A program made the translations under genes and the position numbers. The notes under the pieces are model-generated. The model did no database searches. It had not been told where the DNA came from and was given only the letters and a program-made list of their open reading frames with translations. A stretch of DNA of 63,222 bases, counting the filler, from Hausera hauseri (taxonomy: Eukaryota): the NCBI GenBank assembly GCA_046269625.1. It is 12 parts of 12 records of this genome, joined end to end, with 100 filler letters (N's around TTAATTAATTAA, not from the genome) between each part and the next. Parts side by side here need not be neighbours in the genome. Positions count along the whole stretch, not along the records: positions 53,670 to 58,794 come from JBJURY010328050.1; 11 more parts are not named here. One strand, given 5' to 3'. Numbering within the stretch: the first letter of the stretch is position 1; the number at the start of each line of letters is the position of its first letter. Positions 14,136 to 63,222 of this stretch are shown piece by piece.

Positions 14136-14415
14136 ATAATTCGAATTGGAAAAGAAATTATTATTGGAGTGAAGGGGAGAGCGTAACAGTAACAGCGTTA
14201 GAAGAAAGGGAAATAATAGAAGAACCAGGACTGCAAATGATATGCGGAATAGTAAGGTTGAACCAGAAAAAGGAGATACCAGTGATGATAGTGAATCACA
14301 CGGGAAAAACCATCANNNNNNNNNNNNNNNNNNNNNNNNNNNNNNNNNNNNNNNNNNNNTTAATTAATTAANNNNNNNNNNNNNNNNNNNNNNNNNNNNN
14401 NNNNNNNNNNNNNNN

Positions 14416-16341
14416 TTTCATTCTCTCTATTAGGGTTTATTTTGATAGCTAAGTACAGTAATACTTTTCTTAATTATTCAGTGGTGTTTTCTACCATGAT
14501 CTTTTCGATCACCGTTTCATCGGTTAAGTTGCTTTTGATAATTTAAAACGTGAAATTCTCATCATCCTGGCTACATTAAATATCTCCATTTCTTTATCGT
14601 CCTGTGTGCCGCCTCGTAGGCTTGAATAATTTACAATTCGTATCAAATTCCTCATTAATTTGCTTAGATCTTCATTGTCTGTGCTGGACATAGGAATCGA
14701 CATTTGTCTCCACTCTGTAACCATTTCCCCATTATAGTCAACTTCTCGTGTCTTCTGAGGTCTACCGACTGGGCGTTTGTGTCTCAAGATATCGGTTATC
14801 GTTTTACTTAGTGGCACTAAATTTATATCATATTGTTCCTTGTCTTCATCCGTTTGTAAATATTCAAAATACATTGCAGCTTCTCGGACTCCCATGACTT
14901 GTCCCACACACTGTTCAGTTTTAGCTTTACGCGTGGCTTCTTTAGTCTGCTCATTGGCTATTATCACCACTATTCCATTTGTTTTGTCAGGTATAATCCC
15001 AACGTCTATCAACTGTTCTAGGTAGTCCAGTATTCTACCTCTAAAGTAGAATCTATAGCTTAGCTCGTTTGTCCCACCATTATTTATAAACTATTTTCTT
15101 ATATCCCTCACATAGGAATATGTAGTTAACTCACATTCTTTTTCATCCATCCGTTCGCATGATATTTTTATTTTCAGCGTTACCTTAGGTTTAGCCCTTA
15201 AGATTTTAGCATATTTCTTTATCGAAAGTTTCGGCATTGCGCTATAAATTGTGTTCTTACTAGACAATTTAGTCAAAGTCGGAATAAGTTGCCTTAACTT
15301 ACTTTCAGTAATGTTTACGTTAATTAGTTCGATTAAATTTTATTTAGATAGTGCTGAATCCAGGAGCATCTCCATATTGAATCTACTATTCTGCGGACAC
15401 GTTTCTAATTCATTTAGCTGTACTGAAGTCACAGGATTTTTGGCCGTTAATGCATTTAAGTACGCATCCCATTCCGGTTCACTTCCAATGTCTGGGGATC
15501 CATAGTCTTCCAATGCTATATTCATTCTTTGTACATTTTCTTGAATTTCCTTTAACTTTGGTTGTATTTCTTTAATCTGTGTGGTCCGGAACCCTATTTC
15601 GTTTCCACAAGCGTTCTGAATTAGTTTTAATAATTCGCGCAGTTCGTTCACTGAAATGAATCCTCTTTGATGGTAGTCGGTCAATTAGATAAGTACATTC
15701 TTTTGCCATCTTTGTAAAATCCATGCTTATTTTTTATTTCTGACTCAGTGAAGACGTATTTGTTCCGATAATTTTCGAGCTCTTTTATTAGTTCGTCTAA
15801 CCTGGTTGCTCTTTGTTTGGTTCTAAAACATGTTTCTTCAGCCTGTCTTATTCGAGATATGAATTGTTTCATCCTTTCATCACCAATCTGTGCCATTTCT
15901 ACGAGCAACAGTACAAGCTCGTATATGTCGTTAAGAATATTTAAGTCAGGATCTATCGCAGTGAGCAATTTCTTTACAAATTTAGTTTCCTCAAAACTAA
16001 GATGTTGGTCGTTTCTTATTTTTGTCAACTCGGTATGGCAATTCTGATCTGTTCCAGCTATACATTCTTGTGGTTTATGTATAAATCTTATTACTTCCTC
16101 TATAGCCGTTTTATGTTCTGGACAAATATCTAAGGCTTCGATATCCTGGATGGAAATTTCATCGATAGATTTAGCTGTTAGATGCTGGATTCCCTCTAGT
16201 CGGACGTTTCTTAATCTTGGGTGAAATTGGCAAGTCATATTCTGCTTTTCTGTAAAGATTGTTTCTTCGATCATTTTATATATTTCTTTTACATATTTTA
16301 TATATTTGTTCTAATATCGTTTCTATCATTGTGTCTAGCAT
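14416..16341 (-). pseudogene. ORF2 of the RING-LTR element: helical N-region + ubiquitin-like domain (~14960-15183) + AT-hook-like KRPVGRP; disrupted
   Basis: ORFs 15340-15684, 15091-15276 and 14524-15012 share one frame. Read-through gives VTLKIKISCERMDEKECELTTYSYVRDIRK*FINNGGTNELSYRFYFRGRILDYLEQLIDVGIIPDKTNGIVVII, which aligns by eye to ubiquitin (RFYFRGRIL vs RLIFAGKQL; LIDVGI vs LSDYNI). Confidence 0.65.
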
Positions 16342-16360: not shown

Positions 16361-17083
16361 TTATTCTTGTGCGAATTGTAAAATCCTTTCAAAATTTCCA
16401 GGTCTGGCCAAAATTAGCTGTTTAACTAAATCTCGGGACCAAATATCACTAATTAATTGTGTCGTCGTCATGACATCCAAATCTGGCGGGGTTGCCTTTT
16501 CTGCAGCATCACATTCTGCGTCTGATTTAGCTTTTGCTACATTAGCTATTCTCAAAGTACTCACATAACTATTAGCGAGTTTCTTCAATGCAAATGCAAA
16601 CTGGGTTACCGATTCACCCTTCTGTTGCACCCTATTCTGAAATGCCATAAGTTTCTGTTGTGGCCTTACACTCGGCAATAATTTACGGTTCAATGCTCCT
16701 ACCAAGGAGGACCAAGATTTCTTCTCGTCATTAGTAAGTTCACTATAAGCATCGGCGGATAAATTCTTCAAATATAGCGATAAACGTTTAATCATTATTT
16801 CAAGAGTAAAATTGGTACATTCTGCGTACAATTTATAAGTCCTCAAAAATTCGTTTAGCCCGTCCGGATCACCGTCGTATGCTGGGAGATTCAGAAAATT
16901 AAAAGTGAAGATGTCTAGCTTCTGCGCTACTGGTGGGTTCTCTGCTGCCATGTGAGTCTCAAAATTTACTTTATTAACTTTAAGTTCTACAAGAGGAATT
17001 TTAAACTTATCGATTCGCTCAACGGCGGTTAACTCTGTATTAGCTAAATTTACTCTAGTTTCCGAAATTGAACGTTTATGCAA
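16361..17083 (-). CDS. Retrotransposon Gag (capsid-like domain)
   Basis: LPAYDGDPDGLNEFL...LSLYLKNLSADAY...SWSSLVGAL...RVQQKGESVTQFAFALKKLA (major-homology-region pattern QxxxESVxxF). Confidence 0.85.
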   Translation of the reverse strand: MHKRSISETRVNLANTELTAVERIDKFKIPLVELKVNKVNFETHMAAENPPVAQKLDIFTFNFLNLPAYDGDPDGLNEFLRTYKLYAECTNFTLEIMIKRLSLYLKNLSADAYSELTNDEKKSWSSLVGALNRKLLPSVRPQQKLMAFQNRVQQKGESVTQFAFALKKLANSYVSTLRIANVAKAKSDAECDAAEKATPPDLDVMTTTQLISDIWSRDLVKQLILARPGNFERILQFAQE

Positions 17084-17358
17084 ATTTTTGCTATCTCTAT
17101 ATATATTCCTACTTGTCTAGCGTATATGCGAGTTCTTTCTATCGTTTCGACCAAGGTTTCCCTTTAGCCTATGAATATTTGTTCCCTAGATTTTTACTTT
17201 AAATTTTCCGTTCAACTTATAACCCCCCCCAAAATTTAAACTTCCGAACTATATTCGATTACTTGATGTGGGGCGCTGATCGCCGATGTCGTTTTAGTTA
17301 ACTCTCAGCTGAAGTAAAGTCTAGCGAGGCACTAATCTGTCATGCTAGGGTCGCCAAA

Positions 17359-18075
17359 TGTTATATATTGGGGTGGCCCTTATTCAACTCTCACTATATA
17401 ACAGTAGTTTCCTTGAAATTAAACTCTCTTATTCCGCAGGTAAGGTCTATCGAAACCAATAGACAAATTGTTCCTTATCTTATAGCTCTATTTTAAAACA
17501 GTAAGTGCGTGTACTGCGTGCTTTCAGATGTTTGCAATTTTAATGTACTCTCGTCTTACCTATCAAATTTTACAGTATATTTTAATTCCTAGTGGAGTCT
17601 AATTACCCTTATTGGACAATTTGAAACTATATGAAAGCTTTAAATCAAGACAAAATTTAATGAAAATAACGATTTCCAACTCACGGATATACAGGAATTC
17701 GGATCAATGATAAGATAATATCGTCAAAGTTTTACTGTTAATACTGACAGGTTTGATTCTCGTTTCAATTCTTCGTTTTCGCTACTTCTGTTTCACTGTT
17801 TTCACTTCTGCTTTTACAGTCTTAGAGCTTGTCAAAAAGCTGTTTTAATTTCCTTTTTTTTACTTTAATAGTGATTAATTTCTAGTTTTATTTCATTATC
17901 AATGGGTATATACATATTTGATTCATACCATATCTATTTACATTTATGACCAATTCAGTTAATTATAATTTCCGACAGTTGGAATAACAAAATTATTATT
18001 TATAATTAATATTGCCAGCTGTGGCATTAGTTTCGGTTCATGGACCATCCATTTTGATAGCCTACTGGTATAACA
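17359..18075 (-). repeat. LTR (~717 bp) of the RING element, copy 1
   Basis: Flanked by PPT upstream and PBS downstream; TG...CA ends; U5 half homologous to 56889-57200. Confidence 0.8.
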
Positions 18076-19315
18076 TTTCTCCTCTTTGAACTGTATCCTC
18101 GAAGGTGCCCATTTCATTAGAAGTGCCGCCAACTCTCGGTTGTCTCAGCATATTTATGCGTCATTGTAAACTCGCTCCGGAGTCTATGTTGGGTTGGTTG
18201 ATTCGGACATTTGTTTCTAACTTGTAACTATGATGGGGTCAGATACGGACTATTCGTGTATAACGTCCGTTTAAATAACGTTTTAGGTCAATCGCCTCGG
18301 CCCGGCATACTGGGCAAGTAGTTTTACCGTTTTCCAAGGTCCACCTCTCTAGACAGTCTCTACAATATTTATGTCGCGCTCTTTAGTGTCTAGGATATAA
18401 GATTCTTGCTGTAAGTCTGCTTCACTTACGGGACATTCGTGTGCTTCTTTCTCCCATTTCTTATCGTCTAGATCCACCCTTATCAATATCTCAATTTTCT
18501 CGAATATTAGACCATCCTCGCCCTGGTACAGGTACCCATGGATCCTGCTTTGTTTGGAATCTACGGAACTTCTTCTTGGATCGCAGCTTACTGTCACCAG
18601 TGTCCAGTCCGCCAAGACTTCGTGATCCAAGTTGGGAATCTTCTTTTCGGTCTAATACTTCTGATAATGTTTCTTTAGTAATGTTGTTATTTGTTTGTCC
18701 ACGGGTACCATTAGCCTGCCATTCCTTTTCGACTGGAAAATTGGGGCAACATATTTTCTTAACTTGGGATTTTCCCAGATGTAAGTATTTTTATGTACTT
18801 CTCTTTTCGGTGTGGTCTTAAGGTAAAACATTGCTTCTTTGACCTTTCCGTGACTATAATGTTCGGTGGTCACTAATATTTTTGAACAGTCCTTGGTTGT
18901 TGCGAATTATGTATTTCCTGAAGATAATCATAGAATGGAAGTTTTTTCCTTGATTCTTGGATCATTTTCTCAATTTTATGTTTTTTTTTAAATCTTCGGA
19001 ATTTTGAATATTCCGGTTTCGTTTTTTCCTTGGTTGTTATTTCGGATCTTCTGTGGCTGGTATCCGGTAGTTCCTCTGTGGTTGATTTTCGGACGGCCTT
19101 GGATATGGTTAGTTTAGGATTATCTTCTTCTACCGGTGCGATAACTCTATTAGTAGTATAGGTGCAATATTTTTCCGATGTTTTTCGTTAATCCCTTTTG
19201 GATTTGAAGAGCTGCATAGATTCCGTTCTGATTTATTGGGAGTCCATACATGATCCCACTTCAACCCTACATAAATATCGTGGTGGTATTGGATACGTTG
19301 ACTCGCCATCAACAT
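18062..19315 (-). pseudogene. RING-finger ORF of the LTR element, copy 1 (stops and frameshifts)
   Basis: TYIWENPKL...ADWTLVTVSCDPRRSSV...IHGYLYQ...ECPVSEADLQQ / RHKYCRDCLERWTLENGKTTCPVCRAEA; collinear with 57680-58705. Confidence 0.85.
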
Positions 19316-25006: not shown

Positions 25007-28000
25007 TTATATTTGAGAATCTAGAATCTTCTTCACGACTCCATCGACCTCGTCTGCACTGACTCCATCTCCATGATCCTAAATAAACAATAATAACATC
25101 AACATCATCATCGTTATCATTCGTTGGTGCATCTCCATCACAAACCTTGTCTACTTTCTGAATCAATTTAGCGACATCCTTACGCAAATTCGTCAGTTTG
25201 TCTTTGTAAACCGTTGTTTCCGCTTGGAAATTCGTGAACAATTTACGTAGACCTTTCTCGTAATTGTCAAAGAACTTATCCAGTGGAAATTCGGCGAGTT
25301 CTTTCGGTGTCAGCGAGTGGATAGCGTCTTTGTCAATGGGCCATTCTGGTGGCAGGAAATACCTCAGACAGACCCTGAATTGTCGTTGTCAAAAGATCGG
25401 TCAAACACTGTCTCACTTCAGATTCTCGAATACTTTCTCGGAATTGGCGAGTACGTTCGCCGATCGATGGCGAATATCGGCACTCGTCAGCGGCATCCAA
25501 ATGTCGGCATCATCCTCATTTACTGGATTATCCAATTTGACCCTCCACTGATTGTCCTTCAGCTCCTGGACTCGCCCACTGACCCATTTGTTGTTCATTC
25601 GCAACTGCACGTCCAACATTGATGCCCCTTCTGGTGTCCCGGATCCAGTCTCTTCCATCTGCAACAAGTTTCATGAGTAATCGTTATCTTCAACATGAGT
25701 AATACTCACAGGCTCCTCCTTGATTCTGTTACTATCGGATACGGATGTCGGATGTTCACCATTGACAACTGGTACGCTCGTCTGATTCTCCTGCCCTTTC
25801 TGGTTCCTCGTCGTCGGTCCACTCGACTGCGGCTGTGTGTTGTCTTTACCTCTCTTCTCTGGTGTCTTTGTCTCATTATCCTACACAACAGCATTCATCT
25901 CGTCAATCAATAAATAATGACGAACGTGGGATTTATGTTCAATTTTACCCACCGGCAATGGTTTCGTACTGGCGAATGGATTCTTCGATTCAGTGTTCGA
26001 CGATGTCGATGAATTTAATTTAGGTATTTTTGTTGCAACGACATTGTCTCGGGATTTCGTGATTGTATCCGATTTGCCTTTCCGTTGTTCCAGATTGCGT
26101 GCTGCCTTTTCCGATGGCATCGTGACTTGATGCGGCTTGAGATTTTTATTCTGCAGTGCGATTGACGGCGTTAGTCCGCCACTTTTCGATTTGCGGACTG
26201 ACGAATCCACTGATGTCGATTTTGTCGGCACATTCACCTTCTCTTGGATGGCTTTCTTGGCGACGGTTTTCACCTTCCTACTCGGTCGACTGCCTATCTC
26301 GTCATCATCGATCTCCTCCTCCTTCTCATCCTCATTGTCCTCTTCCTCATCTTCGTCTTCCTCTTCTTCGTCAGACGAATCCAACAAAAATCGCGATTTT
26401 CGGCCGCCACTTTTCCGATCACCGCCGGTTATTTTCTCCAACTCTTCTTGCTTCTTACGAATTTGCTCTTCCAGCTCAGCCTGTCGCTGTTCTTTCGTTT
26501 TGATTTTCCGTTTGAGCGTATCGACGGGGATGTTCAGTTGTTGTTCGGGCTCTGCACATTTCTTGTGCTTTGGATCGGGGTTGTCTTTACATTGCCAACT
26601 ATCGGGTACTTCTTTGCCAATGAGATTTTGCTGGAATGGTAAAACACGCCATTTCAGACATTGGTCACATTGCACACTCAAATTGACACTCATCGCTCGT
26701 TTCTTGACGAATTTCTCGTCGCCACTCGGCGGATCTCGCCATTTCGCTGATTGGTATCCGAATTTCGCCCACAGTACATCGGCACTTTTGGAGTCCATCC
26801 CGATATCGTCCCAATATTGCATCAGATGATCTGCCATCGCCCTCATCAGTGCACGGAATTCCTTGGCGTCAGCAAAGTCCTGTTTGTTGTGAGTCGGCTC
26901 CAGGACGAGATAAGGCACATTGACAATGCCGACAACTCCACGACAAGTCAATCCGCTGTCTTGTTGTGGACCAATTCGCTGGTACATTTTGATGAGTCGT
27001 GAACAATTGTATACGAACATGCCGTCACATGCACGATTTTCCAGATTCATGCCGAAGTAGAATGTGAGGGTTTTCGGTTCTTTCAGTGCTCGTTGTTTAC
27101 GGTTGTATGCGTTTTGTTTCATTTTTACCATTTCTCTCGTTTCCGATGCTTTGTTTTTGATGTATCTCACCATTTTCTAGTGATTGAAATTATTATTTTT
27201 CATAAATATTAATTTTGATAAATATTAAAATTCGTAAATATTCCATTAAGCCGTTACTCACCAACGTCTCAGCATCTGTCACATTGGCGTACCGATTATC
27301 AACGTCCCGTGCCTTACTTTCCGCTTCTCTCGCCTTCATCTCAGCTGCACATTCAAATGGCAATTAGCAACCAATTATCGGCAATTAATTCTCACCTATT
27401 TTCACCTCCTCCTTTGCACGACTCACCTCCGATTCAGCACGAGTCTTGAATGTCTTACTGGCATAATGATACATACGAGGCTTATACAGACAGCTGACGA
27501 GACGTTTTGTTTGAACTTTTCGTCCTTGGAGATAGACCTTCATACGAGGATCTGAATAGAGAATGGACACATACGCCCGGAGACTCCGTCGTTCGGGACA
27601 CAGTCTATTAACAGATAAATGACCTATCATAAGGCATAATTGGCTTACTCGACATCGACATCAACACCAGCATTCTCACCGAGATCAGGATGAGTCAAAA
27701 TGACATCACGACTGTCACTGAATACATCCAATTCGGCTTCACCGTTGTCCAGTAATTTCATATTGTAAATGATGACCAGAGTCCCTGTTGGACCTTTGAT
27801 TTTGTCGAATTGGGAAAATAGGTCCTTTAGACATTTGAATGGCGAGTATTTCAGAATAAGTGACACTTCAAGTTCGTGTCGTTTCTTTTCTTCAGTTGTA
27901 TCCGATATCGGAGATTTATCCGATGTTCGGAATGACGGCAATGGTACGATAACCTCGTCGATCTTCTCCTCCTCGTGGAAAGTCCGTGAAAGAAATAGAC

Positions 28001-40144: not shown

Positions 40145-43100
40145 TTATTCCAAACGCCAATGTCCGTACGCCCAACTCTTATTTTGTCCCACCCACTTTC
40201 GCTTATCATCATTGCATGATAGAGCGACTTTTGTATTGGTCACCATATACGGCTGGTGCTCAATTTATCGTATAATCCCTTGAGACACAACAGCCTTTGT
40301 TTGTTCTCCGTATCCTCCTTCATAGATACGGCGATAATCACCGTGGTTTATTTCCGTTTGGGCCAATAGAACTCCTTTTGTGCGCATTTTTGGCCAACCG
40401 TCAGTTAAAAGGCTATAACATTTTGGCCGTAGAAATACACATTCCCAATACTGAACTCGACCTTCACTTTCATCCTTAAAGCAATCGATTTTGTTTGTGA
40501 TGACGTTGCTGTACAATGGATGATTCTGTGGTTAATTGGACGTGTCCAGTAATCCGTCTGCCATCATTTTCCGCAGTAGTTATTCGGGATTGCCGTTTTC
40601 CAGTTCCAAGAAAAAACTATTTGTGTCACCGGCAATTATATTGACCTTGCATTTGCCGAAAATTTGCTGATAACGTACCAAATCGCGATACTGCAGCTCA
40701 TACATCCGCAACTTGCTCAGATCCAATACCACGTGTCCTATATAACTTGGCCGGTCCAGTATGCCTTATTCTCTGTTTAAAAGCACGGCAACCAATCCAT
40801 CAGCAATGTGCATTGATCGCCTGAACTGCGCCTTGCTGGTGTATGTGACCAAACGCTTTTCGCTTTTGCACAGGCGTACGTTGAGCCGTTTTTTTCAGAT
40901 TCTCTATTGCTTTTCCGTAGAGAGAATTGTTTTTCAGCTTGTAATAGTGTTTTTTAAACTTTGTACAACCTGCAGCTTGTTTTTCCGAATTCCGACGTAT
41001 ATTAGGATTGAATATCGGAGCATATGGGAATCGGATTGCGCGATGTAAATGTGCGACGCGTACACCGAGCTGCACGTAAAATTGCAACAGACGCCAATGA
41101 ACTATGTAATTTTGCTTAGGTTCATGTGTCATAAGCAGTTTCTTTACCTTCGAGCCTGGCGGACATTGGCTAATTGGTGCGACCGGTAATTCATCCAGAA
41201 AGTCATGCAGCTCATCTGGTACCACGAGGTCGACTTCCATCAGGTATCTGATTGAGCTGCTTTCTATTGTGTCTTCTCCCAGCAGATTTTCCATTATGTC
41301 GTCCAGGTCCTATTTGTCTACTATCCATTCGAATGAACCGTACGACAAGGGTTGTGAAAGCGCCCAGCCGTACAGATTATTAATGTCGATATATATCGGT
41401 GATGTGGTATCATCACTGGTAGCAGCAGCAGCAGCAGCACTAATATGGTGCTTGTTGACAAATGTCATGCCGCCAAGAATACCAACATCAAACATTCGGT
41501 GCATTTCCGGATATTGCAATAGCTCGATATCCCAATCCAGTGACATCAGAGTTGATGCTCAACTCATTCCGGGTATTGAGTAAAATTTTTAATGGCTCCA
41601 GACTATCTTCTGCCAACGCTTTAGTCCGAAATGTTTGAAACACAGCGGCTAATATGTACACATTCAATTTCAGATACTGAAGCATATACTCCAACAGTAT
41701 TCTGCAGCCGAGCTCTGTCCAAAACGACTGTGCATTGTGATATTCTTATTCTGTGATACCGGATCATTGCGGTGGTAGTTCGTCTGTCGTATGGAGCCGC
41801 TCGTGCGATATCGCAAAGTCATACGGGAATATGTCTTTGCTATACGAAATATGCACAAGGAACTAGGTCGTTGTTAGAGGCACATTTGGCAAGGCATTTA
41901 CCAGCTTTACCAGAGATTCATTGAGAAATGGCAATGAATTGAGGAAGCGTAACTAGAACCATTTTAAACGAGCAGACAATGGCACGTATTTCTCCACTGT
42001 AGTCGGAATTATGGATCGTTCCCTGTACGGAAATTTGCTTCTTGCCCATTTCAAAATATGTTGACAATCATAACTTCTAAAGTTATGAAATACCACCGGC
42101 ACAAGTGGCCGCACAGGCCGTGCTAAATTGCGTGAATTGTATGCCGCTCCTAGGAATCGACATGTAAAATGTCATGATCCGGCAGCAGCCGTTTCTTTGC
42201 ATCGAACGGTAATATTTTGTGGCACAGATAACACTCATCTGTGATAGCAAATGTCGGGCGTTCATCTTCATCTGTCCAGATCAGAGGTTTGGTGCTATTA
42301 TCACAATACCACGTTACGATTTCAGCTTCCATTATGGTTTGAAACTGCTGCAAGAAATAGAGTGCACAATTCCATCCGTGGAAAATATAATATTGAGGTT
42401 GACCTGCGGCTTTTATTGGGACAACCAACATACCGACAGCGATTGGAACATGTTTTTGGTCATTATGTTGTACCGCGGTAAGATAACGTCGATATTGGCA
42501 TATACTACATATGCCGGACTGAGTGTTTTTGCCCAATCAATGAACCTGAGTTCCATCTTGACAGGCATGACATACTTTATGGTTCCTGACGAATTTTGTC
42601 TGCACAGAATCACATGTTTTTCCCATGTTGTTTCTGATCTGAATCCATGCAAACATACAGGACACCATTTACACTGTAAACTCTTTTTCATGAAGTCGTC
42701 ATGTTCCATGTTCAGCAATCTGTCCAGATTTGTCACTGTAACGTAATAATAATTTTCCTTCTGCTCCAATAGCAACAAATTTACTGAGCAGTCATTTGGG
42801 TTCCGACTACGATATATTATATCCACATGAGGATTTTTGTAAATTTCTTCATCCGCTGGTATTTCTATTATTGTGTTGTACCGGAACACATTGATTGCCA
42901 GTGTCGGATTATGCTGTGAAAATGCCGGAATGGAGTTCAGTTTCATCGGCATCCAGCTTTCATCGAAATCCAATTCGGAAAAATATTTCTGATACTGTTT
43001 TGGACGATATGCATATGTCTGTCCAATTCGTCATATTTCAATACCGCCAAAATACTGTAAAGCAAACAGGATTCATCGTTAGTATTTTTTACATTTACTA

Positions 43101-44059
43101 GCGCTAGAGACTGCCTTAAAGCTACAGGTGTCGACTTTGTTATGATAAAGTTGAGGGTGACAATTTTTATAATTTTCCATCCACTACCATTTTCCGTGTA
43201 GTTGGCTATTTTCTCCTCCAGCTTTTCGTCTACATTGACAATAAAATCTTTGGCGTATGGTACAGCTCCATGTGACAGGTACCATTGTTTCTTGTCACCT
43301 TGTATCTTTTCGAATTCTGCAAGTGCATAATATTGCACTTTGTAGTAATATTGGTATTTCTCCACTTCTGATTCCAACCGGTTGCGCACATTTTGCGTAA
43401 CATATCTCAATTGCGTTGTTGTTTTTGCCGACATATTCACTTTTATATCCAAATACAATCTGTTCATATCGTACTTGACTGTAATGGGAATATTGGCTTC
43501 CTTTTGCTCTGTTCTTGTTGTTTATGCTGTTCTTTCTGCTCCTTTTTCTGCTTCTGATCGGTACTGTTTCTGATTAAATCGTCAAGACTTGTTGAGGTCA
43601 GATGTTTCCTACTGGTTGTTAAGGGATACTGCTATTAGTTGAGTCCATAAGTAGTTGTTTTTTCGACAGCTTAAACTGCTTTAAGTGGTCCTTGTGCAGA
43701 TTATAAAATTGTTCATAGTTGATTTCAGCAACTACTGAACAACCGAGGCAAACTTATGCCAATTTATTGTGCAGCGTTGTGGTGCCATAGTACTGCTCCA
43801 TTGCACTATGGCAACCACTAACGTTGTGCACTTTAGTATTGCAGTAGCGTGGGTATGTAATGCTATGTATAACCTTCATCGCCTTAGACCGAGTAAACTG
43901 TCCGAGATGATGCTTATGCACTTCATAAAAGTCGGTGAACGGGCCTTGGTAAGAAACACCACACGTTGGACATACATACGTGTCCATTCCAGTTGTGTAA
44001 TATTTCGCCATCTGTTGATGGCACTGATCCTCCACATGTATGCTGCAGATGTAGTACAT
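40145..44059 (-). mobile_element. Polinton/Maverick(adintovirus)-type protein-primed DNA polymerase B, degenerate, with two N-terminal zinc-finger-like repeats
   Basis: ENGSGW; CLLYSILA; CPVCLHGF...H; CYLC...DHD (endonuclease-VII-like); motif A YIDINNLYG; YLMEVDL; motif B KLKNNSLYGKAIEN; motif C AGDTNS; KGV; DDKR...AYGH. Confidence 0.9.
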
Positions 44060-45111: not shown

Positions 45112-45977
45112 GAAAATAAAAGATTGATATGGACTTGATTGCCCNNNNNNNNNNNNNNNNNNNNNNNNNNNNNNNNNNNNNNNNNNNNTTAATTAATTAA
45201 NNNNNNNNNNNNNNNNNNNNNNNNNNNNNNNNNNNNNNNNNNNNAAACATTTATTAATGAATAAATCTAGATAAAAATATTACAAATGCACCAGTAAGTA
45301 TACTACACACAAGTATAATATGTCTCTGTCTTCTTCTAAACTCTTCTTTAATCTTTGTCACTAGTATTGATCGAACAATAAGTTCGACATAGTCTTCCTT
45401 TGACTGAAAGTATCCATTCTCCAGTTCATTAAGAAATTGCACACAATTAATTTTGCCACTGAATATTTCCTTTATGAGCCGTTAAATTTCAGCTTCTAGA
45501 TCTGTTTTGCAATTCTAAGTATATAAATAAGTTAGGAGAACAGAATTAAAAACATACTACTTGTCGCACAAATTGTTAAAACAACGCCATGCTATAAGCA
45601 CACCTTTATTTATATCCAAAATTTAAACAAACAAGGGTGGCAATAGTGAAACCATGATTAGATCGCTTTGTTCTCAAACCACATTAAAACAAAAAATATT
45701 TTTACGCGCGAAATTCAAATTTTTACACCTACGTAAAATTCATACGGTACGCGTACTTGTGTGTATCCACTTTCTTACTGTGTCTCCTATCTCCGCCCTA
45801 TCAACCGTGTATGTGTGTATCATTTTTTCTACCCCATGACTCATCTCCGAACTACTTCTTTCCTTCCTTCCCTGGGAGGGATCTGATCCACTGTGCTCCT
45901 TTCTACCTAATACTCTATTGTTTAATAAAGCAACCAGTGGAATCGATCCAAATTCCAGGCGATATATTTAAAATGCC

Positions 45978-47311
45978 TTGAAAGTTTTTAAGGTAAACAG
46001 AGTTGTATTGTTAAGTACGTATTACGTGGACAAAGCTGATATTCTAGCTGACTGGAGAGCCATAGTGGTAAAAGGTCAAGTTGTGTCTTATGGAACATCC
46101 ATATTTTTAAAACGGAAATTCCATTTTGGATATGTCCTCAGTTGTACATCATATAGTAAAAAGCTGAACAATAGTAGCTTATGGAAATTCAGCAACACTA
46201 CAGCTCCACATGCCGAAATTAAAGATCAGCATGGTAGAGAAGTTTCATTTAATATCATTGACAAAGAAATAATCCAATCTTTCAAAGTACTATCGATAGT
46301 TGAAGGAATAAAAACCACAAAGGATGGTAGTTTCAAACACTTTCTGATTGGCAGGCAGCAACTCTTTTCGAAATCTCCTTTAGACTTAACTCAGATGTTT
46401 GCTTCCAAAACTTATCTTGTTTTGAAAGAGAAAGGAATAGAGGCATTTGTATTGATAATTAATTCTCTCCGAGTCAATCAAACCGATCGAAAAGAATCCG
46501 AAATAACGGACGCGGAGTAATTAGATCCAAGCATCGATATTTCATCTTACGTGAACACTCTGGTCCACAGCCCTCCAAACGAACCAGAAAACGATCATTT
46601 AGGAAACGCGACTGCGGCTTATGAAATTCTCATCGCCATGGCACAGCCATCAACATACAGGTTTTGTATATTTGGGGAATTTTATCTTTCACATATATTT
46701 GTCATATTTATGGCTTGTATTGATTACATTCCAATGAGAGACGAAACATCATTGTATTCTCATATTCGATACTGCACACTAGCTGTGTCTAGTATTCTGT
46801 TTTCTGAAACGCAGAGTAATGCCTTACAACACAGAACATTGAGAGTTCGGAATGTTATTGCAAAAATGATGCAGATTATCAGTTACAGTGATCTATTTGT
46901 TGTTTTTCAATCAAAAAATTTAAAACCGCTCGTCGATTCTGTCTCTAAAACTATGTCCAAATTACAAATTAAAAGAAGCAAGGAAGCGGAAAATGTCCTT
47001 TCCGGTTTTATCCAGTGCCGACTGTTCGTTATTAATTCAAAGTTCATTTAAGAAGCATGTAATAAAATCAAAGGGTTACAAAAAACAAAATTGAAAATGG
47101 GCCATGTGGTCGACTCACATAGTGAAGTGTTGAGTTTATGTGCCTTCATCCAGGATCACCCGTTTGACATTCCGTCAGATTTATCTGCAGTGTTGACACT
47201 TCTTTGTCGGTGTATTAATCGCTCGGAATCTATGAGTGCTATAATCAAAGAAACCTTAGCAAGATACAGAAAGAATCATCAGGAAACGTGGCACATGGGA
47301 AGTCAACATTT
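45978..47311 (+). pseudogene. PSME4: Proteasome activator PA200/Blm10 C-terminal fragment, intronless, two in-frame TAA stops, truncated by Gypsy sequence
   Basis: ORFs 45978, 46551 and 47091 share a frame. LQIKRSKEAENVLSGFIQC and VLSLCAFIQDHPFDIP...IIKETLARYRKNHQETWHMGSQHF match the PSME4 C-terminal pattern. Confidence 0.82.
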
Positions 47312-49438
47312 CGGTGCCGGCGAGAATGGTTGGGCGCAATCGTTCTATATTAGAATCATATCGTCAATGCTCGGTAACAATGAGGACGCAGTCGTGACGT
47401 TCAAAGGAAGCACATTCGGGCACGTGGGTGAGTTTTTTTTTTCGGTGATTCATGCCCACCAGTGCGACCACCTCTCGCGCTTATGCAGTTCTCTCGTGGC
47501 TAACACCATTTTTCATTTTAAAGGGTTTTCGAGCTCAGTGTCTTTGGATACTGTCACTGCTACCCTGGCTGCGCGCCCGTACCTCTTGTTAACACAAATT
47601 GAAACACAAGCTCCCCTTGTATTTTACCATATTCCTGGAACTACTTTGCCTCAACTTTCCTTCTTTGTTTTCAGCAATAATAGGCACATTACAACCATTA
47701 CAGCTTCATTCAACGACACAGCGCAACTACTATGCACCTCTATCCTCCTTACTCAACATGTCTAACTTCCATTTCACACATCCAAGTATCACAATACATC
47801 CCGTCGACTCACTCTTGTTTTTCGTATGCCATGAACGTTCAGTCATCCACCTTATGCTCCATTTTCGCCTTCTGGGTGGATCGGATCCAAACCCATCTTG
47901 CTCAGTTGATAAATCCACGAATACGGGCAACATCTATCATTTGCCACACTCCCAACAGGCTCGAGTTTCGCAGAATTTGCCTTGTGTGGAGTTTTTCCTT
48001 GATAAAAACAACTCCAGCAAACCATGGCTTCAATTTCACCAACAGTGGCTAAAATTGAACAATATCAGAGATTTTTTGTGCGAGCCAATAGCCTCTTAAT
48101 TCTTCTGCCTACCAACGTCAAGCAGCAGATTAATAATATCTCCGAGTTACAATTATTGACACCTTATGAGACACTCTGTAAAGCTGTACTGCATTTCACA
48201 GATCCTTCGATTGACAATATAATACAAAAGTATTTTAATGACCACGGAATGGGAAACCAAAAGTTATCCGACTTTGTGAAAGCGGCCATTCTACAGCTCA
48301 GCGCGCTAGGAGTGACCCGTACGAATAACGCGGATTTGATTCGCCGTTATTTCTTATCGTCTTTGCCCACTTCAATCAGAGCCTTACTAACCGTTGTTGA
48401 CGAATCCACTGCTATCGAAAAATTGGCAATAATGGCTGACAAATCCTTTGAGATTCTTCATACTAACAGTTCTCTCCCTGTTGCTGCTAAAACCACATGT
48501 GCTTCAACTACAGATACAACATTCTTTACTCAACAATTGCAAATGATGCAGCAACAGTTTGACATGCTACAACAATCGATTTTGGCCATTACTGCCGAAC
48601 TAAACAATCTTAATGGGCCTCGGTGAAATGAAACCAGACGTTCACGGGAGCGAAGCACTTCAGTGCCCTCTTCTCGGTCCACTTCACCTGGCGGACGCAT
48701 GATTTGTTTCTACCACACTTTTTCGAAAGGAAACAAGGAAATGTTTCTTGGGCTGTCGATTCTTTAGTGAGCGATACGCTGTAAACAACCCTATTTGTAT
48801 ATACCACAACAAATATCAGTCACAGACCAGATCATGTGTGCCTAGTTGTAGATATTACAACAAAAATTCTCCTAGCTTTTCTTCCTCTTCTTCCTTTTCT
48901 CCAAATCGCCCAAAAAACTCATAATGCCGCCAGATTTTACGGCACCTTATGGCGCAGGAAACATCGCTCAATCTTCTGGCCGTTTCAACACCGTTTCTGC
49001 AGTCTTTCTGTAGAAGGCTGCACTTTTATACAGTGATACGTCACATATCGACTTCCTTATAGACTCAGGAGCTGCCTTTTCACTCCTTCCGTTGTCTTTC
49101 ACCTCTACATCCACTATAACTTCCTGTACTCCACTTTTCACTGCCAGTGAACAACCGTTGCACGTTGCAGAAACCACGGAATTGACTTTCACATTCGCCA
49201 ACTTGTCAGATAAGTTTGTCTGGAAGTTCCACGTGGCCAACATTAAATCTGCCATAATAGGCTCAGATTTTCTTGCAGCACACAATATAGTGGTAGATTG
49301 CAAATACAGCTGTCTTCTCAGCAGAAACTCGATTTCAACTTCAAACATGTGTCTCGCAGTCAATCTAGCAAGCAATTCATTGCACTCGTCTGGAAACATG
49401 TTGAATGTTTCGTCATCTATTAAAAAAACTTCCAATAA
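47312..49438 (+). mobile_element. CsRN1-like Gypsy 5' portion (leader, gag, protease), third copy of the family
   Basis: Gag homologous to 9482-10234 (PSIDNIIQKYFNDHGMG...LIRRYFLSSLP...LLTVVDES); CIYHNKYQSQTRSCVPSC CHCC motif; protease FLIDSGAAFS and IIGSDFL. Confidence 0.87.
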
Positions 49439-49642
49439 NNNNNNNNNNNNNNNNNNNNNNNNNNNNNNNNNNNNNNNNNNNNTTAATTAATTAANNNNNN
49501 NNNNNNNNNNNNNNNNNNNNNNNNNNNNNNNNNNNNNNGTTAGTTACTTCACAATTACCCCTCTCGTGCTGCATTCCTCGTCAACCAATCAGTATCACTA
49601 TCTTTCACTACCTAAATCTTCTCCAACTAGAATAAAATAACG

Positions 49643-51689: not shown

Positions 51690-53569
51690 TACAAGAAAAA
51701 AGCACGCATGAATGTCCATAGTAGCGACAACATGCGTTTCATGTATGTCATTGTATAAAAACTCGTAACGCACCAAAAGCATGCTTACCGTGTTTGGCTA
51801 TATAAAGGTCTGCAAAACTACTATGACTTCCAATATATTAAGTTCCAATCATCCACAAATGAAGTCAAAAAATTTGGAAAAGTCTAAAACATGTCCAAAA
51901 ACATCTTCGGATTGAATAAGGAGGACAAATCCTATCCCCTGAAGATATGTGATGTGGAATTGGAAGACCATAGTGATCTGCTCCTACTAGACGATGGAGA
52001 AAAGAAACATTATGTTTGGATCAAAGACTATGAACAGTTAGTCATATTACAAATTACGAAACATCATGGACAAACAGAAATGTGCAAACGATGATTTTTC
52101 TATTTTAGCGGCGATGTAGCAGTTTTAAAGCCTACAGAGCACAAGATGTACTGCAACAACAATTACTGTATCAGACCAGAATTTCTCCAGGAGGACTGCA
52201 CTGAACTTAAGGAGTTCAAGAAGAAGGTCAAGGTCCCAGTAGTTACCCATTGCGACTTTGAGGGAATTCTGCGTCCAGTTCAGAGTTGTAGCTCCAATCC
52301 CCAACACAGAAGCACAACGGCATACCAATATCATGAGCTCTCATCATATTACATGTATGCAAAGGACTAGACAGTGAATCATATCTATTCAGGGGTCCTG
52401 GCGCAGCAGTTTATTTCATGAAGCGACTTGCATACATGGCTCATAAGCTTGGTGATGTGTTGAAGTAGCATAAAGATAACATGAGCATGACGAAGAAACA
52501 CGACAAAGAATGTCGCAAGGCAACTGCATATTTCTTGTACGACAAGTACATCACTAAGGATAATCATTTTACAGGCACATGTCGAAACGCGGAATGTAAC
52601 AACTTCAATCTACTCTGCAGAACATGGATATATGTGCATGTAGTGTTCCACAACCTCAGTGTCTATGATTTCCACTTCATAGTCCGAGAATTGGGAAACA
52701 TTGAGGGGAACATTGGTGTAATTCCCAATAGTGAGGAGAAGTATGTCACATTTACAAAGCATGTTTGGAAAATCAGGCTGCGCTTCATAGAGAGCTTCCG
52801 TTTTATGTCCTCTTCACTTGATAGTTTAGTGAAAAACCTCCCTGCAGAAAAACTCAAGGAGACAAAGCGGTTCTTTCCCACTACATTTTACTTAGTCAAG
52901 AGGAAAGGTTTGTTTCCCGTTTACTATATAACGTCATGGAGAACACTGGATGAGATAATATTGCCAGCCAGAAAGGACTTTTAAAATAACCCTTCAGATA
53001 GCGATATCATAGATAAGGACTATCAGCGTGCTCAAAATATCTGGCATGCATTTCAATGACGAACATTAAGGGAATACAACGATATATACCTCAAGAGGGA
53101 CGTGTTCTACTGATGGGTGTTTTTAAGAGTTTCAGGGATGTTACGATGAACAGCCGTGTATTGGATACAGCTAATTTTTTACGGCTCCAGGATGAGTGGG
53201 ACAGCAATACTGCGCTATACAGGTATTAGGCTGCAGATTATAAAGGATTACGACATGATCCTCATGATCGAGAGAGGCACTAGAGGCGGAATATTTAAGA
53301 CCATTCACCGGTATAGCGAGCCCAATAACAAATATATGGACGAATACGACTCAACAAAGGCATCCTCATATATATCGTACCTAGATTCCAGCAACCTATA
53401 TGGTTGAGAAATGAGTGCCCCATTGCCACATGATGACTTCATGTCATCCTGAAAAGATCCCTATACTGGACCTAAATCCCAGTGGAGATACGGGCTACAT
53501 ACTGGAGGTGGATATCACACAAGGCATGAACAGTCGCCTTTCCTCCACGAAAGCAAGCCTCCGCTCCAT
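51690..53569 (+). mobile_element. Polinton/Maverick-type pPolB, heavily degenerate, close relative of 59846-63222
   Basis: HYVWIKD; CDFEGIL; FHNLSVYDFHFI; IPNSEEKYVTF; RFIESFRFMSSSLDSLVKNL; RKGLFP; GTRGG; YLDSSNLYG; GYILEVD. Confidence 0.9.
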
Positions 53570-56888: not shown

Positions 56889-57687
56889 TGTTATATTTTG
56901 GGGTGGCCCTTAACGATATCCCGCTATATAACAGTGGTTTACTCTTGAAGTTAGTCTCTTATGCAGATTCGATTTAACGTTCTCGTTAAACGAATGTGCC
57001 AATGTGTATTAATTTTTAAAAGAAAAATCTGCGTGTACTGCTTGTCGTGTCCTGTGCAACGGTTAAATAACGTTCTCGTGCTTATAAGAGTTTAAGTAAA
57101 TTTTATTTCTTACTGTCGTCAAATCAGCCTTAAGGGCCGATGGAAACTATAGTGGGAATTTAGAAAAGAATCAATAAATATACCAATGTAATAGCCAACA
57201 CAAAGGATCACAGCGATTGATGAATGTCTTTAGTACTGTTGAATATCACTGAATGAATCACTGAGAATCTTCGCAACACCAGTCAACTCTATAGTCAACG
57301 AATATTTGGCTGTTCGACACTACAGTCGAGGAAAACTTTTCGCAAATAAGTTTCAAATCGCAGGTTTAACCGACACTATAGTCGATAAAAATTTGTTCTC
57401 TTTTCTCTCATTTGGTCTCGTATTTATAGTTCAACGCAGGTGCTTTTTCAATTTATTTTTCATTATCGGTATTTATTTTGCAATTTCCGCGATTTCGAAA
57501 CATTGTTTATCTTTTGATTAAAATGCACTGCATTATATGACTGTAAATATTCGCGTAATTTTTCTAATTGTGAACTATTTACAATGAATCAATTTTGAAT
57601 TATATGTACACAATCAACTCGAGCCAACAACAATTTAGTTTCTCTCTCAGTCGATTCGAGTTGAATTGGAATTAGTTTTTCACAACA
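56889..57687 (-). repeat. 3' LTR (~799 bp) of the RING element, copy 2
   Basis: PPT cagggaggagaga then TGTTGTG at 57687; ends ...AATATAACA at 56889 with no PBS after it; homologous to 17359-17640. Confidence 0.8.
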
Positions 57688-58794
57688 TCTCTCCTCCCTG
57701 AACGACATCCTCGGATGTGCCTATTGCGTCAGGAGAGGTGGCGCCCAATGGTCTCGTTCCTCTTAACTGGTTCATTTTCTCGTGTAAGTCCAATAGGGAG
57801 TCCGATCTAGCTTGACTTGTTGAAGGTCTTGGTTCAATGTCATAACTGTAATGGGGTTGTATTCTAACCATTCGAGTGTAGCTCCCGTTAGAGTAATATT
57901 TTATCTCGGTGGCCTCCGCACGACATACCGGGCACGTGGTTTTCCCATTGTTTAGGGTCCATTTCTCCAAGCAATCTCTGCAATACTTGTGACGGCAGTT
58001 CTTATTATCTAGTATTACGTATCCCTGTTGTAGATTGGCTTCGCATACAGGGCATTCATTTTCTTCTTTACCCCAATCGTCTCGATCTAAATTGACTTGA
58101 ATGGTTAACTCGATTGGTTCAAAGGTGATTCCGTCGCCGTCTTGATATAGGTATCCGTGGATTATTTTCTGTTTGGGATTCACTGAACTTTTCCGCGGAT
58201 CGCAATCTACTTGGATTAACGTCCAATCCGCCATAAATTCTTGATCTAAATCGGGAATCTGTCCTTCTACCTTATATTTTTGATATTGTTTCTTTAGCAA
58301 AATCCTAATCTGTTTGTCTACGGGAACTATTATTTTTTCTGTTCTTTTGGAGCGAAATACTGATGTGAGGTATTTTCCGAGTTTGGGGTTTTCCCAAATG
58401 TACGTGTTTTCAAAGACTTCTCTTGCTGGTGTCATCTTCACATAGAATACCGCTTCCTTGATCATCTTTTTACTATAATATTCTCTAGTTACTAGCATTT
58501 TGGGCAAGTCTTGAACTGTTTTATAATGTACCTCTCCTTTGTCCTTCCTTTTGATTAAGGAGTTAATTTCAGTTATTATGGGGCTTTTAGATTTCTTTTC
58601 GACCGAACTTATATTCCTTGATGTACTTGGCCTGTCATGTTGTCTTCCTATTTCTTGTTCTGGGTTTATCTTCCCTTTCTTAAATAAATAGTCATAAATA
58701 GACAAGGTTCTTTTGGGTTTGGGTTGTTCTTCTAACTTAGGTTTCTTAATTAAAATTTCCGTTTTGGGCTCGTCTCGTTTCTTTGTAATCCTTG
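57680..58794 (-). CDS. Intact C3HC4 RING-finger ORF of the LTR element (open to contig edge, >=370 aa)
   Basis: CPVC-x15-CRHKYCRDC-LEKW-x8-CPVCR; no stop up to 58794; the stop codon lies inside the first bases of the LTR. Confidence 0.9.
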
Positions 58795-59845: not shown

Positions 59846-62800
59846 ATGATCAATACAAAACTCTTAAAAGCAGTTAATGCCTTACAAAGTGGATCGGACA
59901 ATTCAAAAGCAGGAGGATCCAGATCAGATGCTGTGCAAGGAAATAATGCACAAGGATTTAATGCCCAATTCCATGCAGCGCACGGATATAATGCGCAATC
60001 CGTTGATATCAAGTACTACAGTTATACTTTCAATAGAACTGTGTACTATGTATGCCCCAGATGTGATACGATATGCAGAACGCATGAAGAATTTCAAGAA
60101 GATCATGCCCACCACCTAAAATATTTTTGCAGCAAAATCTAAGAATCAGATATTCCATTCAAATATGCCATCTGTACATAATGCTGAAAAACCGAATACT
60201 CAAAGATGTCCAACATACATCTACTGCACATCAGCAGCACATAATCCGGAGGATTTCCACAGAGTGATGCGACAATATTATTGGCAGAAATACTATGGAC
60301 TGGACTATTACATCTGTCCAGTATGGGAGACTGTGACCGGCGCTGAATACGCACAGTTCTACACAAACCATATAGTCCACCTTGCTGACTTCCGGACCAA
60401 ATCAAAGAGGTCTATATTCACCTCATGTTGTAGAAGATGTTCCCGCAGATATTCCAGCAGATTTTCCCGCAGATTTTCCAGCATATTTTCCCGCAGATGT
60501 TCCAGCAGCTGTCTCCGCATCAACAACATCAGCGTTGCGCATTGGATCTCGGGTGCAACATATGGATCCATCTGCAAAGCGCAAGAATCAAAGTGCTGCG
60601 ACAGCCACTAATGCCCCAACTAAAAGTCAGAAGCAGCGGCCCGTTGATTCCTCTGCACTAGGAGATTAGGTCCGCAAATATATAATTGATGCAACACGTC
60701 AATCAACCCTCAATGAATTCTTGGACTATGCAGCAAATGAAAGTATGGGAATCATCCAGGACAATTTGGTGAAACTCAAGGCCTTTTAAGTCAGCCTTAA
60801 GTTAGAGGCAGAATACAGTAATGTCGATGGCGAAATATCAGATCGGGCCTTCAAGACGAAGAATGGGCCGATAATTCAGTCTACCAACATTCAGGAATGG
60901 ATCAATGAGGAATATACAAAACTTCTCCATGAAGCTGAGAAGAGCCAGGATAAGGGGAACGGCTGGGCTCTCTCATCAGTCAAGCGATTGCTGATTCATG
61001 TACACAAGTACAGCCCGATGAGAGGTAGCTCCTACATATAGCTCCCAGAGTGGATCCGCAAGAATGTGCACAATCAGGACAACATGTGCTTTAAATATGC
61101 CATCTTATCGAAACTCATAGCAGATGAACATAATGCCTCGCGGGTTTGGTTGTACAATGACCTACGTCATATCTATGATTTTAATTGCATCACGTTTCCA
61201 CCAACTTTGGAGGAAATCAAGAAATTTGCACTTGTAAACCATATGTCCATTAATATATTTGCAGTGGACGAAACAAATAGATTCTATCCTCTAAACGTGT
61301 GTGAAATGGAACGTGATGATCATAGGGATCTTCTCATGATAGACGATGGTGATAAGAGCCACTACGTATGGATAAAGAATTTCAAACGCCTCGTCAGATC
61401 CCAAATTACAAAAAATCATGGAGGAATTACAATATGCAAACGCTGTTTGTCACATTTTAGCGGCGAAGGTGCTGAGGAAAAGCTCAAGGAACATAGAATT
61501 TACCGCAATAAAAACTATTGCATCCGGACTGAATTTCCTAAGGAAGATTATATCGACTTCCAGGAGTACGGAAAGATGTACAAAGTGCCAGTAGTTATAA
61601 ACTGCGACTTTGAAGCGATCCTCAGACCAGTGCACAGTTGTAGTCCCAATCCTAAATGGGTAGCACAACGGAATACCAGTAGCACAAGTTATCATCATAC
61701 TGTATGTATGCCAAAGGACTCGATGCGGAGCAATACTTATTCAGGGGTCCAAATGCAGTGACACACTTCATAAAGCGATTGGAGGATGTGGTCTACAGAA
61801 TTGAAAAGATTCGACAGAAGCATAAAGAAACAAATGTGATGTTGTCATCAGAGAAGCGAGATTTGCATATGGCAACATCATGCTACCTGTGCAAATGCCC
61901 ATTTACGATGGAGAACAGGAAGGTAAGGGATCGTTTCAATGTAACCGGCAAATACAGAGGCGCAGCTTGCAACAATTGCAACCTGCGCTGTAAAATTTGT
62001 TAACATGTCCCCATCATATTCCACAATCTCAGTGGATATGACTCCCATTTTATTATTCTTGAATTGGGCAACATTAAGAGTGGCATTCAGGTCATCCTGA
62101 ATAGTGAAGAGAAATATATCTCCTTCACTAAATATATGGGCCACACCAGACTTAGATTTATCGACAGTTATCGTTTTATAGCATCGTCACTGGACAGCTT
62201 GGTCAAAAATCTACCAGAAGAGTTGAAGGAAACAAAGAAGTTCTTCCCAACAACGTTCGATTTAGTAAAACGGAAGGGTGTTTTCCCCTATGTTTACATA
62301 ACTTTATGGGGATCGTTGGACAAGACAACACTTCCAGCTAAGAAGGACTTTTACAGCCAGGTGTCAGACACAGATATCATTCATAATGATTATGAACACG
62401 CACAGTGAGTCTGGAAGACATTGGAGATTATAGCGATGTATATCTCCAAACAGACGTCCTGCTGCTCACACGTCTTCGAGAGGTTCAGAGACTTCACACT
62501 TGCGAGTCACAAGCTGGATCTGGCTCATTTCTTTACTGCCCCTGGAATGAGTTGGGCAGCAATGCTCAGATATACGGATGTCCGGTTGCAGATCCTAAAG
62601 GACTATAACATGGTCCTCATGATCGAGCGAGGAATCAGGGGATGAATTTGTCAGGCCTTTTACAGATATAGTGACACCAACAACATTTATATAACAGAAT
62701 ATTATGCATTGAAACCATCACAATACGTCACATACCTAGATGCCAACAACCTATATGGTTTGGCAATGAGTAACCCATTACCATACGGCAAATTTCAATG

Positions 62801-63222
62801 GGATGAGCAGCCGGACGAGATCAAGATCCAGGACCCGGACCCAAATGGAGATGTTGGATACATATTGGAGGTAAATGTGGAATACCCCAATGATATCTGC
62901 AAAAAGCATGAACAGCCTTTCCTCCCAGAGAGTAAACAGCCGCCAAACGGAAAATTTACAAAATTGCTCTGTCATATGGAGAACAAGGAGAGATATTCAA
63001 CACATTACATTAATCTCCAGCAGGAGAAAAGAATGGACTCCGCATCACGAAGATCCATTGAGCCCTTTGGTTTAGTCAATCCAGGTGGCTGCAACCATAT
63101 ATCGATTTTAACACAAAGCTGAGGACCGACGCGAAAAACGACTTCGAAAAGGACCAGTACAAGTTGTACAACAACAGTGTGTTCGGAAAAACAATGGAGA
63201 ACATCAGGAACCGAATAAATAT
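59846..63222 (+). mobile_element. Polinton/Maverick-type pPolB with two N-terminal zinc-finger-like repeats, disrupted, runs off window
   Basis: GNGWAL; DNMCFKYAI; HYVWIKNFKRL; CKRCL; CDFEAIL; CYLC...TGKYRGAACNNCNL; FHNLSGYDSHF; RFIDSYRF; RKGVFPY; YLDANNLYG; [18 protein letters not shown]. Confidence 0.92.
60438..60510 (+). repeat. 12-nt tandem repeat (ttcc(c/a)gcagat-type, ~6 units)
   Basis: Encodes VPAD-IPAD-FPAD-FPAY-FPAD-VPAA, FPQI repeats or SRRF repeats depending on frame. Confidence 0.85.

Follow-up and report, generated by a model that had tools for sequence, protein, structure and literature searches.

We found that a minus-strand open reading frame (ORF) in Hausera hauseri DNA probably forms the 3′ portion of the gene for a large accessory protein, encoded by an LTR element that has many copies and is likely of gypsy type; this protein would join a selected RING finger, as a likely E3 ligase, to a likely dead DEDDh nuclease domain. 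The window, the whole stretch of 63,222 nucleotides that was analysed, consists of 12 short contigs joined by N44-TTAATTAATTAA-N44 linkers. The ORF (copy 2) lies at the end of the contig at 53670-58794, and a related copy (copy 1) lies on the contig at 14416-19315. The contig edge cuts the copy 2 ORF at its 5′ end, hence no start is visible. Each of the two contigs carries one LTR, and no pol, paired LTRs or target-site duplication was seen on either of them, as both contigs end first, which leaves the env position of the sequence-only reading a putative one.

Copy 2 (57680..58794, minus strand) supplies the 3′ 370 codons of the accessory ORF in an open frame that is stop-free from 58792 to 57683 and closes with a stop codon at 57680-57682, and none of 20,000 shuffles of this stretch was stop-free. 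Residues 1-92 (58517..58792, minus strand) form a basic, poorly conserved linker that is identical at 18 of 68 aligned positions to P0001, the closest relative described below. Residues 93-244 (58061..58516, minus strand) form a conserved domain (68/145 identical to P0001) that had no convincing match in Pfam, PHROG, Atlas or PDB. Residues 247-291 (57920..58054, minus strand; 37/52 identical to P0001) form a C3HC4 RING with the pattern C-x2-C-x15-C-x-H-x2-C-x2-C-x3-W-x8-C-P-V-C-R. The sequence-only reading had recognised the eight ligands, the Trp and the terminal CPVCR, and reading of the motif together with Pfam matches above cut-off bears this out: zf-C3HC4 (PF00097) scored 32.8 bits against a cut-off of 21 (30.8 bits in P0001) and zf-RING_2 scored 37.8 bits against 27.3. 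All eight zinc ligands stand in C3HC4 spacing in both copy 2 and P0001. Copy 2 also has Trp278, Pro288, the hydrophobic E2-facing residues and, behind the last Cys, the linchpin Arg291. The Trp and Pro of RING fingers have E2-binding roles. AlphaFold gave a pLDDT of ~70-82 for the RING part only and below 50 for the domain before it, and the matches listed by Foldseek with the RING model were RING/U-box E3s, at E 0.028 or weaker. A role of the linchpin Arg in RING E3s has been described, and the identity of the linchpin differs among active E3s (PMC12326332, excerpt). On the basis of these motifs and established RING chemistry, there is good reason to expect that the RING would bind host E2~ubiquitin and have E3 activity.

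The end of the ORF is embedded in the terminal sequences of the element. A polypurine tract (PPT) of 12 purines followed by TG lies inside the copy 2 ORF (57688..57699, minus strand) and another at the same place in copy 1 (18076..18087, minus strand); 12 purines plus TG occur once on the minus strand of each contig, at the ORF end in both copies. Behind the copy 2 PPT comes an LTR-like TG...CA repeat of 799 bp (56889..57687, minus strand), so the ORF indeed crosses the PPT and ends in the first LTR bases, as had been claimed. This repeat is likely the 3′ LTR because no primer-binding site (PBS) comes after it. The copy 1 repeat, preceded by its PPT, is 717 bp long (17359..18075, minus strand) and also of TG...CA form, starting with TGTTATA and ending with TATAACA. 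The first halves of the two repeats do not align (score 24, within the shuffle range with mean 23.5 and maximum 39), in agreement with the earlier description of the U3 half as barely alignable, and the second halves do (score 91, shuffle maximum 32). Both repeats have common words ~265 and 220 bases from the end, which we take to be TATA-like and polyA-like.

Copy 1 has the same PPT/LTR layout and encodes a clearly similar protein, 59-60% identical to that of copy 2, as the sequence-only reading had stated. The same reading described an intact RING ORF conserved across the two copies, but copy 1 is dead. Its decayed linker, middle domain and RING (18062..19165, minus strand) contain stops opposite copy 2 residues 89, 174, 312 and 338, further frame changes in the linker, a Ser in place of ligand 2 and a frameshift at ligand 3; the RING Trp, Pro and terminal CPVCR are still present. 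At the ligand-2 codon, the 7 contigs of run X1 and the 1 contig of run X2 listed there are all unlike copy 1, so the loss looks private to copy 1. The extent given earlier for copy 1, 18062-18900, was too short, as similarity reaches 19315: the segment at 19166..19315 (minus strand), cut by the contig edge, is the end of a DEDDh-like region that is 48% identical to P0001 394-443 (E 1.8e-9). Although the linker (58792-58517 and 19187-18876) otherwise diverges, copy 1, copy 2 and P0001 all retain in it a cluster of basic residues with a short hydrophobic-Y-D-[YL] motif behind it; the combination is reminiscent of a nuclear signal or a PCNA-binding box.

The comparison of the two copies took their codon pairs unaltered and passed over stops and gaps. 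For the 221 codons of residues 93-317, pN was 0.20 and pS 0.83, and identity by codon position 1, 2 and 3 was 0.75, 0.83 and 0.40. Since this synonymous saturation leaves the Jukes-Cantor dS undefined, omega was estimated by maximum likelihood (GY94). The estimate was 0.053 (LRT against 1, p ~1e-37; 0.10 excluded), a figure that is loose in its exact value given the saturated dS but firm in its purifying direction, and conservative in view of the neutral decay that copy 1 has undergone as well. The dN/dS between the copies is thus far below 1, as the sequence-only reading had anticipated for cargo under selection. By part, omega was 0.062 in the middle domain and 0.041 in the RING, showing that both are under strong purifying selection. 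The tail gave 0.53 (p 0.14), indistinguishable from neutral. Four read variants at second codon positions had prompted a search for an overlapping second frame in the tail; it contained no other conserved open frame, and the idea was rejected for this roughly neutral stretch.

The RING might instead be a structural, dimerising or chromatin-docking module that serves RNP assembly, RNA export or integration targeting, and not an active ligase. Such a role would suit an adjoining domain that is selected as strongly as the RING, and accessory retrotransposon proteins can serve RNA export, as does CERV (PMC10309623, excerpt). However, both intact members have retained the E2-facing residues and the linchpin Arg, and even copy 1 still has the Trp, Pro and terminal CPVCR. 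CERV itself is no RING E3 according to the same excerpt (PMC10309623) and was rejected as a RING precedent. We therefore regard a purely structural RING as unlikely and retain the reading as a probable ligase.

To place the ORF among known proteins, 1.84 billion representatives were searched with a sensitive method, which gave 422 matches at E 0.001, and the best 150 were examined. P0001, an 870-aa protein from ENA on one 16.2-kb contig, is 49% identical to copy 2 residues 84-370 (E 2.6e-76) and was the only convincing match to the middle, non-RING domain among the best 150 of the 422; 149 of these 150 match the RING or low-complexity repeats only. P0001 is intact, with all 8 RING ligands and the P, V, W, P, V and R residues kept, and it shares with copy 2 its last seven residues, VQGGEML, whose codons in the window straddle the PPT/LTR joint. 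P0153 (333 aa, ENA) is a fourth member, with 53% identity over the N-terminal part and a conserved region that starts at the same place as that of P0001. The link of P0001 and P0153 to an LTR rests on this common C-terminal heptapeptide. Several other searches returned nothing related: the 370-aa ORF gave 0/1025 candidates in a word-index search, where the whole P0001 found itself only among 7290; scans of viral contigs showed no related locus; phage tblastn with the nuclease-like domain had no match; and Atlas held no usable match for the middle domain. A motif scan of metagenomes yielded 2 loci, each matched out of frame in DNA of a bacterial transposase that we take to be IS66-like.

The order of domains in P0001 is an N-terminal domain of no known family, a DEDDh-exonuclease-like domain, the linker, a second domain of no known family and the RING. 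The end of the DEDDh-like region survives in copy 1 (19315-19166), so the window's own family has this order too, and the RING is only the last domain of a ~800-870-aa protein that also has a DEDDh-exonuclease-like domain, which the sequence-only reading had missed. The ~600 upstream residues of P0001 had no RT, integrase or Env/viral fusion protein match in Pfam or PDB. No membrane anchor was found in copy 2, whose top 19-residue hydropathy is 0.19; hydropathy in P0001 exceeds 1.6 in residues 1-24 only, and the same stretch in P0153 is not hydrophobic. The accessory protein is not Env, because a membrane anchor is absent, and with neither RT nor integrase the ORF is a 3′ accessory ORF and not a pol tail; the matching start of P0153 and the lack of RT and integrase in P0001 likewise set it apart from pol. 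Residues 1-55 of P0001 and 1-68 of P0153 are an unconserved Phe-rich leader, followed by a common M-x-D-I-D-x-F-F-Q start. The true protein start may lie at this motif, with a pyrimidine-rich splice acceptor upstream.

The nuclease-like domain was assigned from P0001 232-419. In PDB this segment matched DnaQ (E 1.2e-4) and PolC exonuclease (E 1.5e-4), the sole other match being ISG20L2 (E 0.12); in NCBIfam 11 of 11 matches were DnaQ-type (best E 2.9e-4); Pfam RNase_T gave E 0.013, a PHROG exonuclease E 1.1e-4, and the Atlas features were RNase_T (0.93) and arenavirus nucleoprotein (0.91), with the scores in all five resources below curated cut-offs and coverage mainly of Exo I-II. Queried by itself, P0153 matched no Pfam or PHROG family, and the single-sequence fold of P0001 had a pLDDT of 31. 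The catalytic D-E-D-D plus His set is not preserved: the D-x-E of Exo I is aligned to A-I-N in P0001 and A-V-N in P0153, the Asp of Exo II is aligned to Met, and the loss of Exo III was judged by eye only. These substitutions suggest that the P0001 nuclease domain is likely catalytically dead. Of the DEDDh-like region, the window contains 50 codons, all of them in copy 1.

The other side of the copy 1 LTR bears on the kind of element. A PBS-like sequence (17339..17356, minus strand) begins with TGG two bases (TT) past the LTR end, which ~5% of positions would show by chance; no tRNA was found in the window to pair with it. It is followed by a gag capsid-like ORF (16361..17116, minus strand) with matches to Pfam Retrotrans_gag (E 0.0025, below cut-off) and Arc2 capsid (E 0.55). 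Behind gag, broken ORF pieces with many variant X1 contigs (14524..16310, minus strand) are likely a long ORF1. These pieces belong to no known family and may represent an extended, long ORF1 that bears a Cys/His pair motif. The order ORF-PPT-LTR-PBS-gag in copy 1 implies a tandem arrangement, a circle with one LTR or a join made in assembly, and a scaffold circularly permuted in this way has been described (PMC5408684, excerpt). It is conceivable that the element is non-autonomous or unusual, with gag and an accessory ORF but no pol, or that the ORF is a pol tail reached by frameshift, in which case an ORF3 in the env position would be the wrong frame. The 2.7 kb of ORF sequence past the copy 1 LTR are capsid-like with no match to a protease or RT, pol was never seen linked, and the copy 1 order may itself reflect a tandem, circle or join. 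These points are weighed against the ~600 residues that P0001 has upstream of the shared region without RT or integrase, the start of P0153 at the equivalent place, and the known gypsy-like elements with a long ORF1 before pol (PMC6431247, excerpt). An element without pol, or a pol tail, accordingly seems quite improbable to us, and we keep to a 3′ accessory ORF of a likely gypsy-type element.

The rest of the window holds other repeats and host-like pieces. Other decayed gypsy-like elements at 6192-10330, 20935-21576, 23422-24081 and 48006-49490, some with RT, integrase or gag-like matches, have no DNA similarity to the RING family. Fragments at 40800-43521, 51700-53430 and 61042-63122 are likened by us to Polinton-type DNA polymerase regions; two of the contigs are 64% alike over 1.75 kb, and 61042-61758 had no Pfam match. 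The contig at 29252-34840 is entirely a CT-rich simple repeat with internal gaps. A Sec24 piece (12837-14312, 491 codons), a piece of a MORC CW-finger protein (25881-27176, 431 codons) and a PSME4 C-terminal piece (45972-47765) are long, intron-free and host-like, the last of them being stop-broken and continuing into a gag-like ORF at ~48006; the three are possible retrocopies or element cargo. The Sec24 and MORC pieces indicate a eukaryotic source, which by resemblance would be an animal.

Contigs of run X1 speak for a multicopy family: 8126 matched the copy 1 contig and 2350 the copy 2 contig, mostly 80-99% alike; these counts take in other repeats on both contigs, and contig depth is no copy number. 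The source of the window and that of either run, X1 or X2, may be related. As many as 24 X1 contigs were counted at one listed site in the RING ORF of copy 2, and a site on the gag side of copy 1 had up to 88. X1 contigs that match exactly span 17517-17905, 17876-18362 and 18770-19104; two exact contigs carry copy 1 from its ORF into the LTR, and a diverged one (66 differences, 17 gaps) reaches from the LTR into the PBS (17286-17905). Run X2 (another study; 0.15 of words) gave the same pattern at lower depth. X1 depth tops at 57603-57773, around the PPT and LTR start, far above its level over the ORF, and contig ends come loose at 57680 and 57748, a sign that many elements have this short LTR head in common but differ on either side.

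The sequence-only reading had proposed element-borne cargo under purifying selection rather than chance capture, and this claim is supported: omega is 0.053, variant contigs are many, a third, intact member also ends in VQGGEML, and the non-RING domain convincingly matches only P0001 among the best 150 representatives. Passive capture of a host RING E3 gene or retrocopy beside an LTR, for which the intron-free host-like Sec24, MORC and PSME4 pieces in the window could speak, is largely refuted and very improbable, given that in both copies the coding sequence extends over the PPT into the beginning of the LTR, that the same peptide ends P0001, that the copies are at synonymous saturation with an omega of ~0.05 and have many variant contigs, and that the protein searches described above turned up no cellular protein containing the non-RING domains.

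How might such an accessory protein act? It would putatively be expressed from a separate, probably spliced RNA. The RING would engage host E2~ubiquitin, and the dead nuclease together with the two domains of no known family would supply targeting, most simply via nucleic-acid ends or RNPs; alternatively, the dead nuclease fold would mimic host DEDD proteins. A host silencing or restriction protein on element RNA or cDNA would then be ubiquitinated, as by viral counter-defence ligases. A target of this class is possible, although we put its chances at rather less than even. Catalysis-independent functions have been reported for TREX1 and PML-type domains (PMC10123124, excerpt), and piRNA biogenesis involves inactive derivatives of DEDD proteins (PMC5408684, excerpt). 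More tentatively, and with some doubt, the protein may be a Vif- or ICP0-like counter-defence ligase of an invertebrate transposon, whose dead DEDDh domain would mimic or out-compete host proteins of the TREX1, PML or piRNA-pathway type that survey RNA or DNA ends and whose RING E3 would destroy those factors.

To our knowledge, few suppressors of host silencing are known in animal retrotransposons. A conserved pseudonuclease-RING protein is a concrete, assayable candidate, and its substrates would name host factors that limit such elements. Copy 2 provides the RING half in natural, intact form and allows selection to be measured directly, and from the present family come two domains without known relatives as well as a 3′ ORF slot put to a non-Env use. 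Additional ORF3s have been published, DEDDy nucleases among them, and a pseudonuclease-RING ORF3 was not found published in the literature searched, outside Repbase Reports, subscription journals and supplements, which may hold one; neither 'ring' nor 'ubiquitin' occurs in PMC6338049 or PMC13524379.

The family can be set beside four known systems. The herpesvirus protein ICP0 is a viral counter-defence protein whose own C3HC4 RING uses host ubiquitin machinery; it is a DNA-virus protein without a pseudonuclease, and the likeness is limited to the generic RING. PML of jawed vertebrates has a RING and a DEDDh fold, without catalytic residues in amniotes, in one protein involved in retrotransposon control; however, it is a host TRIM protein that restricts L1, with the RING first and a B-box/coiled coil (PMC10123124, excerpt). 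The likeness to PML is an architectural analogy from the opposite side of the conflict; no sequence link was found. The planarian Burro/GYPSM1 giant elements resemble the present family as gypsy-like elements with ubiquitin-related cargo and a long ORF1, which is likely here too. They carry MATH/TRAF, BIR and Ubi/SUMO-like domains and an AIR1 domain labelled 'RING Zn-finger', and their ubiquitin- and apoptosis-related domains have been proposed to meddle with host systems (PMC6431247, excerpt). In that excerpt, however, most of the domains are placed within an ORF1 polyprotein of 4,900-5,100 aa, with no mention of a nuclease-RING fusion, whereas here the LTRs are 0.7-0.8 kb and the RING ends the 3′ ORF at the PPT; Burro-type MATH, BIR, BCL2 or env-like regions had no match in the 2.7 kb of ORF1-like sequence seen. 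The bdelloid LTR retrotransposons Juno and Vesta have non-Env ORF3s with active DEDDy nucleases (Rodriguez, Kenefick and Arkhipova 2017, PMC5408684, excerpt). The word 'ring' has 0 occurrences in PMC5408684. In contrast to the bdelloid DEDDy domain with its intact catalytic residues, the domain found here appears DEDDh/RNase T-like, without the catalytic acids, and this predicted pseudonuclease is fused to two domains of no known family and a RING.
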